A stretch of DNA of 64,000 nt from an uncultured Pelagibacteraceae bacterium (GCA_902555965.1 CACDUM010000002.1:353-64352); one strand, 5' to 3'. Numbered from the stretch's first letter, positions 38,917 through 43,526 are shown. Translations and numbers: made by a program. Notes: generated by a model not told the origin, from the sequence alone.

Positions 38917-39636
38917 CTAAAAATTATCCTTTAAATCTCTCAATTTTGAAAAACTTTCTAAATCTTTTGCTTTAAGAAATATATTACATTCTAATTCATC
39001 AGCTAAAGTACTTGGTATTGTTGGTAATGCATTTTTAAGTTTCTTGTTAATCTCTAGTATTTTATTTTTTAATTTTAAATTATCAGAGTCATTGGCAATA
39101 CAAAAATTTGAGTTTTGTAAAGTGTATTCATGGCCACAATATATTTCTGTATCTTTTGGTAATGATTTAATTTTTTTAAGTGAATTATACATTTGTTCGT
39201 GGGTACCTTCAAAAATTCTGCCACACCCTAAAGAGAATAGAGTATCACCAGTAAAAATTTTTTTTTCTTTAAAAAAATGAAAAGCGATATGTCCAGATGT
39301 ATGACCTGGAATATGATAAATTTTTGCCTCAAAATTATCTTGTTTCCATATTTGGTTATCCTCTAGAGATATATCAATCTCGGGTATACGATTTTTATCT
39401 CCAATAAATCCAACCACCTTAGAATTATACTTTTTTTTTAATTCAAGATTTCCACCCACATGATCGTAATGATGGTGTGTATTAAGTATAAATTTTAAAT
39501 TTATTTTTGAATTATCAAGATAGTTGATTATTGGTACAGACTCGCTAGGGTCAATGACACAAGCGGTCTGATTTTCTTCATCAATGATTAAGTAGCTATA
39601 ATTATCCTGTAGACATTTTATAATTTCAATTTTCAT
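38917..39636 (-). CDS. gloB: Hydroxyacylglutathione hydrolase (glyoxalase II)
   Basis: DNY, THHHYDHVGG, PGHT.GH, FTGDTLF..GCGR, CGHEYT. Confidence 0.95.
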   Translation of the reverse strand: MKIEIIKCLQDNYSYLIIDEENQTACVIDPSESVPIINYLDNSKINLKFILNTHHHYDHVGGNLELKKKYNSKVVGFIGDKNRIPEIDISLEDNQIWKQDNFEAKIYHIPGHTSGHIAFHFFKEKKIFTGDTLFSLGCGRIFEGTHEQMYNSLKKIKSLPKDTEIYCGHEYTLQNSNFCIANDSDNLKLKNKILEINKKLKNALPTIPSTLADELECNIFLKAKDLESFSKLRDLKDNF

Positions 39637-40233
39637 TTATTTTTCTATTAAAAATATACCAAGTTCTCCAAATAAATTTTTAAAAATAAGATTTGAGTTA
39701 TTTATATCAGAAACATTTTCATTAATTAACGCTAAAGATTTAAAAATTTTAAAGTTAATAATCTTAGAAAATCTTACAAAATCTTTTATCGTACACATAT
39801 GAATGTTCGGTGTGTTATACCAATCATGAGGTAAAGAGTTTGTAATTGGCATTGTTCCTTTAAATAATAAATTCAATCTTACTTTCCAATGCCCAAAATT
39901 TGGAATAGTTACTATAGCTTTGTTACCAACTCGTAAAAGCTCTTTAATTACAGTCTCAGGATTTATAAAAGCTTGTAAAGTTTGTCCAAGTACAACATAC
40001 TCAAAAGAGTCATTTGGAAATTGCTTTAAATCAAATTCTGCATTTCCCTCAATAACAGTCAGCCCTTTAGCAATACAAATTTGCACTTTTTCTTTTGAAA
40101 TTTCAATTCCCCTGATATTAGCATTTTTGTTTGTTTTTAAAAATTCCATCAAAGTTCCATCATCACATCCTACATCAAGAACTTTTGCATCTTTCTCAAT
40201 TAAATCTGAAATAATTTTATACTCTGGTTTCAT
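39637..40233 (-). CDS. metW: Methionine biosynthesis protein MetW
   Basis: VLDVGC, QTLQA, PNFGHW, WYNTPNIH; directly downstream of metX. Confidence 0.95.
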   Translation of the reverse strand: MKPEYKIISDLIEKDAKVLDVGCDDGTLMEFLKTNKNANIRGIEISKEKVQICIAKGLTVIEGNAEFDLKQFPNDSFEYVVLGQTLQAFINPETVIKELLRVGNKAIVTIPNFGHWKVRLNLLFKGTMPITNSLPHDWYNTPNIHMCTIKDFVRFSKIINFKIFKSLALINENVSDINNSNLIFKNLFGELGIFLIEK

Positions 40234-41354
40234 GAAAGTTTTTCTGCATAAGATTTATCTAAAAAATTTTTAAGAGCTTTTAAGAAATCTGGAACATTAA
40301 GCAAAAAAGAATCGTGACCTTTATCAGACTCAATTTCAACAAAACCCACATTTGCACCTACTGCGTTTAAGGCAATTACAATATCTTTATTTTCTTGTGT
40401 TGGATAAAGCCAATCTGAGGTAAAGGATATTATAAAAAATTTCGCTTTAGTATTTTTAAAAGCATCAGATAAATTTCCATTAAATTGTTTTACTAAATCA
40501 AAATAATCCATTGCTCTGGTAATATATAAATAGCTATTCGCATCGAACCGATCTACAAATACCGAACCTTGGTATCTAAGATAACTTTCAATTTGAAAGT
40601 CAGCATCAAAACCAAATTTTAAATCATCTCTTTCTTGAAGTTTTCTTCCAAATTTTTCTTGAAGCCCTTTTTTTGAGAGATAAGTAATATGTGCGGCCAT
40701 TCTAGCCACAGCTAATCCTTTATCGGGTACAATACTTTTTGAATTATAATTTCCATCTGACCAATTATGATCTGCTGCAATGGCTTGTCTGCCAAGTTCA
40801 TTAAAAGCTATATTTTGCGCAGAATGGCTTGAAGTACAAGCAATTGGTATTGCTGTTTTAGCTTTATCAGGAAAATTACTAATAAATTGTAGGACTTGCA
40901 TCCCACCCATTGAACCACCTACAACTGAAAAAAGTTTTTTTATTCCAAAAAAATCCAACAAATTTAATTGTGCATTTACCATGTCATTAATTGTAATTAC
41001 CGGGAAATCCGTTCCGTAAATTTTTTTTGTCTTAGGATTTTCATGGCTAGGCCCAAAAGACCCCATGCATCCACCTATTACATTTGCACATATTACAAAA
41101 TATTTATCTGTATCTATCGACTTACCAGAGCCTACTGCGTAAGACCACCAACCATCTTTTTTGGTTATAGGATTTATACCTGTTACGAATTGATCACCAG
41201 TTAAAGCATGAAATATTAAAATCGCATTATCTTTTTCATTGTTGAGTGAACCATAAGTTTCATACGCTAAAGGAAAATTATTAATAGTCTGACCACAATC
41301 TAATTTGAGTGGTTTTTCAACAATCAATGTTTTTATATTTTCTTTTATATTCAT
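40230..41354 (-). CDS. metX: Homoserine O-acyltransferase (MetX family)
   Basis: AYETYG, HALTG, GGSMGG, ARMAAHITY, RFDANSY, GHDSFL. Confidence 0.96.
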   Translation of the reverse strand: MNIKENIKTLIVEKPLKLDCGQTINNFPLAYETYGSLNNEKDNAILIFHALTGDQFVTGINPITKKDGWWSYAVGSGKSIDTDKYFVICANVIGGCMGSFGPSHENPKTKKIYGTDFPVITINDMVNAQLNLLDFFGIKKLFSVVGGSMGGMQVLQFISNFPDKAKTAIPIACTSSHSAQNIAFNELGRQAIAADHNWSDGNYNSKSIVPDKGLAVARMAAHITYLSKKGLQEKFGRKLQERDDLKFGFDADFQIESYLRYQGSVFVDRFDANSYLYITRAMDYFDLVKQFNGNLSDAFKNTKAKFFIISFTSDWLYPTQENKDIVIALNAVGANVGFVEIESDKGHDSFLLNVPDFLKALKNFLDKSYAEKLS

Positions 41355-41387
41355 AATAAAAGCTGAAAGTTGAATTGTGAGAAAAAA

Positions 41388-41440
41388 AACTTTTTTAGCG
41401 GTTTTTTTAAAGCGCTCGCAATTCAGTTAAATCAGCGCAT
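41388..41440 (-). ncRNA. SAM-II riboswitch aptamer upstream of metX
   Basis: Minus-strand RNA AUGCGCUGAUUUAACUGAAUUGCGAGCGCUUUAAAAAAACCGCUAAAAAAGUU matches the SAM-II pseudoknot: P1 GCGCU/AGCGC, GAUUU loop, UUGC pairing with GCUAAA, AACU/AGUU. Confidence 0.93.
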
Positions 41441-41444
41441 AAAT

Positions 41445-41473
41445 TTTGTACTAGATGTTATTTAGTATGTCAA
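41445..41473 (-). promoter_or_regulatory. Sigma70 promoter for SAM-II/metX-metW
   Basis: Minus strand TTGACA (41473-41468), 17 bp, TACAAA (41450-41445); the predicted start falls at the first bases of the aptamer. Confidence 0.75.
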
Positions 41474-41556
41474 TTTTTAAAATAATTACACTTAAACTAT
41501 GTAAAAAAATGTTTTTTTATTTATAAAGGGCATAAAATTTATAAAAGATTGCAACT

Positions 41557-42630
41557 ATGAGATTTAAAAGATTGAATATTGAAACCTATGAACCTGGCAA
41601 ATCCAGTGTTAAGAGATTTCATCAAGTTGTAAAGCTATCTGCGAATGAATCGGCCTTAGGTGTCAGCTCAAGAGCAAAAAAAATTTTGTCTAATAAAAAT
41701 TTAAGTTTTTTTAGGTACCCAGATGGCAAGTCTAAAGCCTTAAGAAGACAAATATCAAAAAAGTTTAAATGTGATGAAGATAGAATTATTTGCGGCGCTG
41801 GATCTGATGAGGTTATTCAAATGCTATGTCAATTATTTTTAAATCCTAAGGATGAAGTTATTCTTCCTCAGTATAGTTTCTTAATGTACAGGATATATGC
41901 TAAAATAGTTGGTGCAAGAGTTATTTTTGCTAAAGAAAATAATTTTAAAGTATCAATTCCAGAAATTATTAAAAATGTTTCAAAAAAAACAAAAATTGTT
42001 TTTTTAGCAAATCCTAATAATCCAACTGGAACATATCTAACAAGTTCTGAGCTTTTAGAACTTAGAAAAAAATTGAGAAAAAATATTCTGCTAGTAGTGG
42101 ATGATGCATATGCAGAATATATGAAAAATAATGATTATAAAAGTGGATTAAAATTATTCAAAAATAAACAAAATGTCTTTATTTTAAGAACATTTTCTAA
42201 AATATACGGTTTATCCTCTCTAAGAGTAGGGTGGGGATATGGTTCAAAAAAAATTATTAAAGCACTGAATGTTATTAAGCCACCTTTTAACGTTAATGAG
42301 GTAGCACAAAAAGCTGCTATTGAGTCTCTTAAGGATACTAAGTTTATAACTCGTTCGATTAAACACAATATTATTTATGCAAAAAAATTGAAAAATTTTC
42401 TTAGACAATATGGAATTAATTCAAACAATGTATCGGCCAATTTTTTATTATTAAATTTTGAAAAATGTAAATTCAAAGCGAAAAATTTTTATGAAAAATT
42501 AAAGATGAAAGGAATTATCTTAAGATCAACAGAAAATGGCTACAATATAAAAAATATGTTACGATTAACAATTGGATCAAAAAAAGATAATTTAAAATTT
42601 ATGCGAGCAGTAAAAGGAATGTTTAATTAA
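41557..42630 (+). CDS. hisC: Histidinol-phosphate aminotransferase
   Basis: KLSANE, RYPD, GAGSDE, ANPNNPTG, DDAY, RTFSKIYGL..LRVG. Confidence 0.94.
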   Translation: MRFKRLNIETYEPGKSSVKRFHQVVKLSANESALGVSSRAKKILSNKNLSFFRYPDGKSKALRRQISKKFKCDEDRIICGAGSDEVIQMLCQLFLNPKDEVILPQYSFLMYRIYAKIVGARVIFAKENNFKVSIPEIIKNVSKKTKIVFLANPNNPTGTYLTSSELLELRKKLRKNILLVVDDAYAEYMKNNDYKSGLKLFKNKQNVFILRTFSKIYGLSSLRVGWGYGSKKIIKALNVIKPPFNVNEVAQKAAIESLKDTKFITRSIKHNIIYAKKLKNFLRQYGINSNNVSANFLLLNFEKCKFKAKNFYEKLKMKGIILRSTENGYNIKNMLRLTIGSKKDNLKFMRAVKGMFN

Positions 42631-43526
42631 TGAAAAATGTGCTCATCATCGGCTGTGGCTTGTTAGGATCTTCGTTAGTAAAAAGAATTGCAAAAAAAAA
42701 ATTAGCAAAAAAAATTTTCATTTTTGAAAAATCTAAAAAAAATATATCAAAGATCAAAAGACTAAAGTTACCAGGAACTCTCGTAAATAAACTACAAGAG
42801 GTAGTTCCAAAATCAAATCTAATTATTTTTTGTACGCCAATGAGTGAATACAAAAAGATGATATTAAGATTAAACAATAATTTTAATTCACAACAAATTA
42901 TTACTGATGTTGGTTCGTCAAAAATAGAGTCTTCAGAAATTATTAAAAGAAATTTAAAAAAAAAAATATCCTGGATTCAAAGTCATCCTATAGCTGGATC
43001 GGAAGTAAGTGGGCCTGAGCATGGTAAGGAAAACCTGTTTGAAAATAAGTGGTGTGTATTGATTAAAAATAAGAAAATAAATATGAAACATTTAAAATTT
43101 TTGAATTCTTTTTGGAAAAAAATGGGTTCAAAAACTGTAATCATGAATGCGGAAAGACACGATAAAATATTTTCAATTACAAGCCATTTACCACATTTAA
43201 TAGCTTACAATTTGGTTAAATCAGCTCAAGATTTTGAGAAAAAGCAAAAATATGACTTAATTAAATATAGTGCAGGTGGATTAAGAGATTTTTCAAGAAT
43301 TGCTGCATCAAATGAAATTATGTGGAGAGACATTTTTTTTGATAATAAAAAAAATGTTTCAAGAGCAATTGATATATTTATCAAAAATTTAAGATCTTTT
43401 AAGACAGACATTAATTCAAAAAATAATAGATCAATTCTTAAAAAATTAATTCAAACAAAAAAAGTTAGGTCTAAAATAATTAAATTAAAACAGGATGTAA
43501 ATAAACCTGACTTTGGTAGAGATTAA
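42630..43526 (+). CDS. tyrA: Prephenate/arogenate (cyclohexadienyl) dehydrogenase
   Basis: IGCGLLGSS, TDVGSSK, HPIAGSE, HD...SHLPH, RDFSRIA. Confidence 0.92.
   Translation: MKNVLIIGCGLLGSSLVKRIAKKKLAKKIFIFEKSKKNISKIKRLKLPGTLVNKLQEVVPKSNLIIFCTPMSEYKKMILRLNNNFNSQQIITDVGSSKIESSEIIKRNLKKKISWIQSHPIAGSEVSGPEHGKENLFENKWCVLIKNKKINMKHLKFLNSFWKKMGSKTVIMNAERHDKIFSITSHLPHLIAYNLVKSAQDFEKKQKYDLIKYSAGGLRDFSRIAASNEIMWRDIFFDNKKNVSRAIDIFIKNLRSFKTDINSKNNRSILKKLIQTKKVRSKIIKLKQDVNKPDFGRD

Follow-up and report, generated by a model that had tools for sequence, protein, structure and literature searches.

How can a SAM-II aptamer control a gene whose leader carries neither a Shine-Dalgarno (SD) motif nor a terminator hairpin? 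This question is raised by the metX leader of an uncultured Pelagibacteraceae bacterium, located in a 64,000-nucleotide stretch of DNA (GCA_902555965.1 CACDUM010000002.1:353-64352) that was analysed as a whole and is called the window below; positions are counted from its first letter, and features lie on the minus strand unless stated otherwise. SAR11 bacteria are among the most abundant organisms of the sea and depend on reduced sulfur, which gives the tuning of methionine synthesis in this group an ecological weight. The first gene of the regulated operon is metX (40230-41354), encoding a homoserine O-acyltransferase of the alpha/beta hydrolase fold, and it is followed by metW (39637-40233) and by a gene encoding a metallo-beta-lactamase-fold glyoxalase II-like protein (38917-39636). 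The three genes are probably co-transcribed, as they abut or overlap (38917-40233).

A putative sigma-70-type promoter precedes the leader (41445-41473), with TTGACA at 41473-41468, a 17-nt spacer and TACAAA at 41450-41445. Its GUACAAAA block is conserved among relatives, and its placement suggests a transcript start at around 41440-41438, at the foot of the aptamer stem P1. The TTGACA/TACAAA pair, whose -10 hexamer ends in A, was not listed by the consensus promoter scan. A second promoter-like arrangement within the leader, CTCACA-17-TATTAT, was rejected because its -10 part is not conserved. Beyond a 202-nt spacer, a divergent operon on the plus strand (41557-43526) encodes a class I/II aminotransferase and then a prephenate dehydrogenase. 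We also observed an AUG-CGC-UGA sequence overlapping the foot of P1 (41432-41440); its AUG reads UUG, CUG, GUG or ACG in relatives and, not being conserved, is probably meaningless.

The aptamer itself (41386-41438) folds as an H-type pseudoknot. P1 pairs 41438-41434 with 41416-41412, P2a pairs 41428-41425 with 41391-41388, and P2b pairs 41421-41418 with 41399-41398 and 41396-41395, U41397 between them occupying the position equivalent to U44; L1 (GAUUU) spans 41433-41429 and the A-rich L3 spans 41411-41400. The SAM-II core is present in full at 41433-41395, namely the L1 third strand GAUUU, UUGC, the A-rich L3 and GCUAAA with its bulged SAM-reading U, and the core columns are invariant across the Pelagibacterales. 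When 22 aptamers from nine Pelagibacterales genera were compared, 95.4% of the cells of the pseudoknot pairing were paired, versus 30-54% in slid controls, with compensatory change from U-A to C-G at two pairs, one in P1 and one in P2a. A SAM-II element upstream of metX (SAR11_0217) has been on record for 'Candidatus Pelagibacter ubique' HTCC1062 since 2009 (Meyer et al. 2009, PMC2704228), and published work has established selective SAM binding by SAM-II RNAs of relatives. The RNA before metX is this known SAR11 metX SAM-II riboswitch, and by analogy with its relatives the copy in the window would bind SAM. The core, the pseudoknot pairing and the position in the metX-metW leader, which is the same in 150 leaders (among the matches listed), bear out the initial annotation, made from the DNA sequence, that had placed a SAM-II aptamer here. 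That annotation had further described AGUU (41391-41388), opposite AACU in the loop (41428-41425), as a compensated replacement for the purine-rich, SD-like 3' tail typical of SAM-II. The replacement stands, since relatives have GAGG or AGGG where the window has AGUU, and the P2a pair concerned is U-A 7 times and C-G 14 times in the comparison; the pairing falls within the variation of the family, however, ACU/AGU being the P2a consensus of the Rfam family RF01726.

With Rfam at gathering cut-offs, no RNA family whatever was found in the whole window (1-64000), so that standard annotation would miss the metX riboswitch. A local Rfam scan matched both SAM-II families, but below their gathering cut-offs: RF01726 (SAM-II long loop) with 31.9 bits against a cut-off of 44 (E = 1.6e-4), and RF00521 (SAM_alpha) with 30.2 bits against 36 (E = 2.8e-5). 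The SAM-V covariance model (RF01826, cut-off 41) gave no match, with 18.9 bits and E = 0.84. The literature's own HTCC1062 copy also lies below the SAM-II cut-offs (31.8 and 26.7 bits), as do the sister-genus copies that fit the crystallised SAM-II RNA (26-29 bits); orthologous leaders of the order's second family pass (36.8-44.7 bits). Since the literature-named copy and the sister-genus copies fall short as well, the Rfam cut-off is too strict for AT-rich members, and the low score of the window's RNA reflects the Rfam model rather than the RNA.

Immediately after G41390 comes a run of eight U (41382-41389), the first two of which belong to P2a, and then an 11-nt strand, CUCACAAUUCA (41371-41381), complementary to UGAAUUGCGAG (41425-41415) in the aptamer core, that is, to the 5' strand of P2 and two bases of the 3' strand of P1. 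Ten of the 11 positions pair, the sole mismatch being C41418 against A41378. On one side of this helix AAAAAAAC (41408-41401) pairs with GUUUUUUU (41390-41383); on the other, UCAGC (41362-41366) pairs with GCUGA (41436-41432) as a basal extension. These elements, the G41390-U8 segment included, lie on the minus strand exactly where the initial annotation had put them, and the long hairpin that it had drawn from them is precisely the minimum-energy structure of 41340-41440 (RNAfold, -18.1 kcal/mol). The hairpin and the pseudoknot are mutually exclusive. On a single sequence the hairpin is within chance (z = -1.75, with 14 of 200 shuffles folding equally well), and shuffling the downstream 70 nt yields a complement of at least 10/11 in 6.7% of cases. 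The window sequence alone proves little; it is conservation, as read from aligned leaders, that makes the anti-aptamer strand real. A terminator scan found no terminator-like site at 41100-41700, and the stem-loop plus U-run terminator of the transcription-terminating SAM-II subtype is absent after this aptamer. The leader likewise differs from the direct-occlusion SAM-II/SAM-V subtype, in that the aptamer tail is AAAAAAGUU and the AUG follows 37 nt after G41390 with no SD-like motif between.

Conservation was assessed in 150 Pelagibacter leaders with an identical aptamer core (among the matches listed), 30 retrieved via metX of genus relatives and 120 by a pattern scan; these leaders are phylogenetically related, and the counts overstate their independence. 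In 147 of the 150 (among the matches listed) a run of five to nine U is followed, after 0-2 nt, by CUC-N-CAAUUCR, so the U run and the anti-aptamer strand proposed for the window are real and conserved features, the strand matching the aptamer itself in conservation. The run comprises 5 U in 4 leaders, 6 in 10, 7 in 33, 8 in 98 and 9 in 5, and a spacer of mostly 9-19 nt separates the strand from the AUG (both among the matches listed). Across 106 unique leaders (among the matches listed) the strand is 96-100% conserved with two exceptions, the position of the mismatch (76%) and the final base (A/G, 90%), and the adjoining spacer is only 30-60% conserved. At the mismatch, A, U, C, G or a deletion is found. 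Four leaders have G there (CUCGC), which creates a C-G pair, and these same four have the shortest U runs; runs of five or six U occur only where the anti-aptamer gains this G-C pair or where extra bases follow. The length of the U run also rises weakly with that of the L3 A run. Compensation of short runs and this tracking of the A run are both consistent with a pairing role for the U run.

The anti-aptamer strand lies within the minimum-energy structure of 77 of 112 unique leaders, and for 46 of 90 unique spacers a basal pairing comparable to UCAGC/GCUGA is better than shuffling would give, at p <= 0.05 (both among the matches listed). The basal UCAGC helix is lineage-specific and is missing where spacers are short and A-rich. 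A scan for aptamer-core variants with a non-A at the A18-equivalent position found none, and the core is identical in 30/30 genus relatives retrieved via metX. Because the core never varies, two-sided covariation of the anti-aptamer helix cannot show; the alignment of metX leaders thus upholds the strand and the U run but yields no covariation for the helix.

The 35 nt before the metX AUG (41354) contain one G, 7 C and no SD-like motif. The initial annotation had noted this absence correctly and had regarded it as unusual, which it is not: an SD core (AGGA, GGAG or GAGG at -18 to -5) was found at about 11% of 856 gene starts of the window's genome, against a background of 4%, with the null gene starts called crudely. 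A missing SD is ordinary in this genome and no peculiarity of the metX leader. With an SD core at so few starts, the openness of the start site becomes a plausible handle for control. The start region concerned (41316-41361) consists of the spacer, the AUG (41354-41352) and the A-rich codons 2-13. Its accessibility was compared in two states, one with the anti-aptamer helix forced, standing for the SAM-free RNA, and one with the aptamer blocked as a proxy for the SAM-bound RNA; the energies are nearest-neighbour predictions that contain neither pseudoknot nor ligand terms.

With some 60 nt of coding sequence added, the predicted fold of many leaders keeps P1 closed and pairs the U run and CUCAC..AAUUCA with the start region. 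The start region of many lineages is a mimic of the aptamer core plus A run, as in UGAAU-AC-UGAG-AAAAA. Over 123 unique leaders (among the matches listed), the predicted cost of opening -3 to +20 averages 5.36 kcal/mol with the aptamer blocked versus 2.03 kcal/mol with the anti-aptamer formed, and it is higher in the blocked state by more than 0.5 in 114 of the 123 and lower in 1. A composition-matched shuffled strand gives a mean opening cost of 4.2, so that much of the effect is that of a U-rich strand facing an A-rich one. Relative to 286 other genes of the genome, the SAM-bound proxy is average and not closed (53rd percentile), and the anti-aptamer state lies at the 9th percentile. Compared with 856 null start regions, 34 of 106 unique pairs (among the matches listed) have a duplex of switching strand and own start that ranks in the best 5%. 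An unconstrained 'apo' ensemble showed no clear polarity over -12 to +12.

For the window's own leader, opening -3 to +20 is predicted to cost 3.56 kcal/mol in the SAM-bound proxy and 1.55 kcal/mol in the anti-aptamer state. This masking is modest (2.0 kcal/mol) and no better than that by a composition-matched shuffled strand (3.56 versus 3.8), and the duplex of switching strand and start is ordinary (-7.0 kcal/mol, matched by 16% of the null). The predicted pairs of the proxy join 41362-41356 to 41348-41342, UCAG to 41327-41324 and UUCAAC (41374-41369) to 41321-41316; the U8 run is predicted to have the L3 A run (41408-41401) as its partner in the alternative hairpin and the A-rich codons in the SAM-bound proxy. 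The two global folds are nearly isoenergetic (-24.8 versus -25.2 kcal/mol, before any contribution of SAM), as suits a reversible switch. The initial annotation had noted that, taken literally, SAM binding would free the initiation region. That reading ignored the early codons, and it falls away once they are included, the freed strand then pairing with the start region in the predicted folds, which gives OFF polarity. Two further candidates were rejected. The one candidate for two-sided covariation couples GUAAAAA in codons 6-9 to an AC or GC behind the U run (raw counts of 10/15 versus 2/114, among the matches listed); on a tree it reduces to about four independent contrasts and does not reach significance. 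Partners for the strand were also noted by eye in GAUUGUGG, some 75 nt inside the gene, and in UUGAUUGU, but these codons lack nucleotide-level conservation among close relatives.

An experimental anchor is offered by HTCC1062. We infer that genome G081 of our set is this strain, since its spacer before metX has the length (191 nt) and GC content (22.5%) given for HTCC1062 in PMC2704228. The G081 leader has the window's platform, U7-GU-CUCACAAUUCA; its switching strand/own start duplex reaches -10.6 kcal/mol (2.7% of the null), and its predicted opening cost is 6.55 in the SAM-bound proxy versus 2.87 in the anti-aptamer state. In published array data (PMC5069961 Data Set S1), the log2 values of SAR11_0217 (metX) were 6.47, 6.94, 6.88 and 7.28 (mean 6.89) in control exponential cultures and 7.89, 8.22 and 8.27 (mean 8.13) in sulfur-limited exponential cultures, a rise of approximately 2.4-fold in metX mRNA when sulfur is limiting. 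SAR11_0219, which is probably third in the operon, rises likewise, and the divergent SAR11_0216 is unchanged (PMC5069961 Data Set S1). These data support OFF logic with an mRNA-level component, in agreement with the polarity that the initial annotation had expected for metX, but they do not separate mechanisms. The same paper states, without data, that SAM-II affects transcription (PMC5069961).

We favor a model where the leader is a SAM OFF switch that acts by three-strand exchange on SD-less initiation, to which we give a probability of about 0.45, the highest of the readings considered though just short of even odds. The transcript would start at the foot of P1, and the aptamer (41438-41386) would fold first. 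The strand made next, consisting of the U run and CUCACAAUUCA and in this lineage also UCAGC, would have two alternative partners. Without SAM, it would invade the aptamer by pairing CUCACAAUUCA with UGAAUUGCGAG, the U run with the L3 A run and UCAGC with GCUGA; the resulting long hairpin would lock the pyrimidine-rich leader away and leave the A-rich start unusually open, allowing translation of metX-metW. With SAM, the pseudoknot would hold the core, and the free U/C-rich strand would pair with the AUG and the A-rich early codons, lowering ribosome access to the level of an average gene or below; the untranslated mRNA would then be lost via Rho or decay. The U run, lying between the aptamer and its competitor, may also pause the polymerase and so give SAM time to bind. 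What the sequences show in this model are the complementarities, their conservation and mutual exclusivity, and the predicted energies and polarity; ribosome access as the regulated step, the pausing and the secondary loss of mRNA are inferred. As the conserved strand is made after U8, the regulated event must follow its synthesis, which favors control of initiation on the finished leader and speaks against U8 termination being the only output.

The 2.4-fold mRNA change fits transcriptional control equally well, and the U run could itself be the site of regulation. P2, stabilised by SAM and closed by C41426-G41390, would then act, as the initial annotation had suggested, as a ligand-dependent intrinsic terminator lacking a hairpin, stopping or pausing the polymerase at around 41382-41379, with read-through when SAM is absent; the anti-aptamer strand would only dismantle the aptamer or act as a lock after read-through, and the pseudoknot stem would have replaced the classical terminator still kept in sister genera. 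The U run does follow G41390 directly and measures at least 7 nt in 136 of 150 leaders (among the matches listed), all sister genera with the aptamer have a hairpin-plus-U-run terminator, making termination control likely ancestral at this locus, and both the rise of metX mRNA itself in sulfur-limited HTCC1062 and the statement in PMC5069961 that SAM-II acts on transcription, given there without data, are in line with this view. We nevertheless consider it unlikely, as it leaves unexplained a near-invariant strand made after the proposed stop, P2 does not make a stable stem by itself (evaluated as a hairpin, +0.2 kcal/mol at 37 C), no terminator shows up at the site in the scan, and the U run has another explanation in its pairing with the L3 A run, whose length it tracks. 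SAR11 relatives that do terminate build ordinary GC-containing terminators, and a pseudoknot serving as terminator stem was not found described in the literature searched. The HMP-PP riboswitch, reportedly an aptamer embedded in a terminator with which it shares nucleotides, is relevant to this alternative only; it is said to be an ON switch on an ordinary hairpin terminator, whereas the window would employ a pseudoknot. An effect on mRNA could also arise if its survival or the loading of Rho were what is regulated, the SAM-bound state exposing the G-poor, pyrimidine-rich segment 41389-41355 to Rho or RNase E and the long hairpin burying it without SAM. The genome has genes encoding Rho and a nuclease of the RNase E/G family, the excess of C over G before the AUG (7 C, 1 G) is reached by only 1.8% of other genes' -35 to -1 regions, and the polarity would be right and the effect at the mRNA level. 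Over the usual span of a Rho site (71-78 nt), however, the skew is unremarkable (13% of genes), and it arises automatically because the strand complements the G-rich aptamer core; the effect is, moreover, not separable here from a secondary consequence of blocked translation, and as a primary mechanism it appears quite improbable.

Two other readings would dispense with the OFF switch or with the aptamer. The 11-mer might be kept for a role unrelated to the aptamer, such as a protein site or a DNA-level element, its complementarity being coincidental. The 6.7% of shuffles that reach at least 10/11 on a single sequence, and an invariant core that makes two-sided covariation impossible to demonstrate, would be compatible with this, but the only freely varying position is the mismatched one, the CUCGC variants turn that mismatch into a C-G pair, and the strand accompanies this aptamer core alone, always at the same place behind it, so that coincidence is very hard to credit. 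Lowest of all we rate an ON switch, where the long hairpin, ending 8 nt before the AUG and followed in this lineage by UUUUAUU, would block initiation or terminate transcription without SAM, and SAM would free the start. Its basal helix GCUGA/UCAGC does span -12 to -8, and a minority of leaders need about as much energy, or more, to open -15 to +3 when the anti-aptamer is formed (in 48 of 123 the cost is lower with the aptamer blocked, among the matches listed). Against this, sulfur limitation raises metX mRNA in HTCC1062 instead of lowering it, about half of the unique spacers lack the basal helix (among the matches listed), the UUUUAUU tail is not conserved, the anti-aptamer state has the more open -3 to +20 region in 114 of 123 leaders (among the matches listed), and the relatives are all OFF-type terminator designs.

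No description of a platform or mechanism combining a U run with an anti-aptamer strand was found in the literature searched. The aptamer is already known; it is the output stage that differs from the terminators of sister lineages. The HTCC1062 metX SAM-II element is orthologous, having the same core, downstream gene and platform, and the paper describing it records the aptamer only (PMC2704228). The crystallised metX SAM-II RNA has been treated as a translational switch with the ribosome site in P2 (PMC10907184, PMC6061858, PMC3303485). It shares with the window the fold and the ligand-contacting L1 UUU, UUGC and GCUAAA with U44. Crystal-type leaders, however, have CC/GG at P2a and a purine-rich tail followed, in the genomes seen, by a classical terminator, whereas the window has ACU/AGU, U8, the anti-aptamer strand and an AUG 37 nt downstream of G41390. 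The residues of the crystal RNA (2QWY) quoted in papers (U1, C6, U7, U18, A19, U20, U21, G22, A25, G26, A46-A48 and G52) all fit the sister-genus leaders L171 and L172 and not the window, which suggests the lineage from which that RNA comes. In these two leaders the aptamer (L171:109-161, L172:90-142) is followed by the purine-rich tail AAAAAGGGAG and then by the terminator GCCCAGUUUAGCUGGGC-U9, with the metX AUG 2 nt after the U run. An in-frame AUG stands straight after GGGAG in L171 and L172 (AUA in L173) and may be the reason why a ribosome site beside the start was assumed. The textbook 'ribosome-site occlusion' for the metX SAM-II model RNA misfits the genomic contexts seen here and should be used with caution.

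A 2024 study reported that a downstream linker blocks the SAM-II domain of the P. ubique bhmT leader (Feng et al. 2024, PMC11508383). This tandem SAM-II/SAM-V leader resembles the window's in being a SAR11 SAM-II RNA whose ligand response is blocked by a downstream linker at equilibrium; there, however, the linker folds into a hairpin ahead of a poly-U terminator and translation is left to a separate SAM-V domain, whereas the window has one aptamer and no terminator hairpin. In translational riboswitches with an anti-sequestor and a sequestor, such as the E. coli thiM TPP riboswitch, a middle strand has two alternative partners, the aptamer and the start region, and what is hidden is the SD. 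The same three-strand logic would apply to the metX leader, except that an A-rich start would be masked by a U/C-rich strand and no SD is involved. A widely studied aptamer class would thereby be wired to an SD-less start by way of a strand whose partner is now the aptamer, now the A-rich codons.

All other Pelagibacterales genera with the aptamer, in the same family and in the second family, have a hairpin-plus-U-run terminator downstream, for example GCCCAGUUUAGCUGGGC-U9 or ACCGCC...GGGCGGU-U9. Such leaders are like the window's in serving metX, in having a homologous aptamer and in following OFF logic via a strand that competes for part of the aptamer. In their predicted folds, the antiterminator forms when the P2 3' strand GCUAAA pairs with UUUAGC inside the terminator; they thus compete for the P2 3' strand, with the competitor inside a GC-containing terminator that runs into U7-U9, whereas the window competes for the P2 5' strand and the P1 3' strand and no terminator hairpin follows. 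Among the samples searched, the U-run/anti-aptamer platform was seen only in the genus of the window, and it looks derived from the terminator design. Three Pelagibacteraceae leaders, L064, L099 (SCGC AAA240-E13) and L147, are hybrids that combine the window's aptamer core and a U5-U7 run with the sister-genus terminator, here GCCCAGYUUAGCUGGGC-U9, and may represent steps on the way from one platform to the other. Taken together, the metX leaders form a natural series in which a classical terminator was exchanged for a new platform, which makes the evolution of expression platforms testable.

One genus of the same family (L174-L178) has metX without a riboswitch, the gene starting at or overlapping the stop of the upstream gene (UAAAUGA), and methionine control must be organised differently there. 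The usual metX AUG reads AUU in leaders L068 and L087; an in-frame AUG lies nine codons downstream, which is present too in their relatives L023 and L145, and the metX start codon may differ in the L068/L087 clade.
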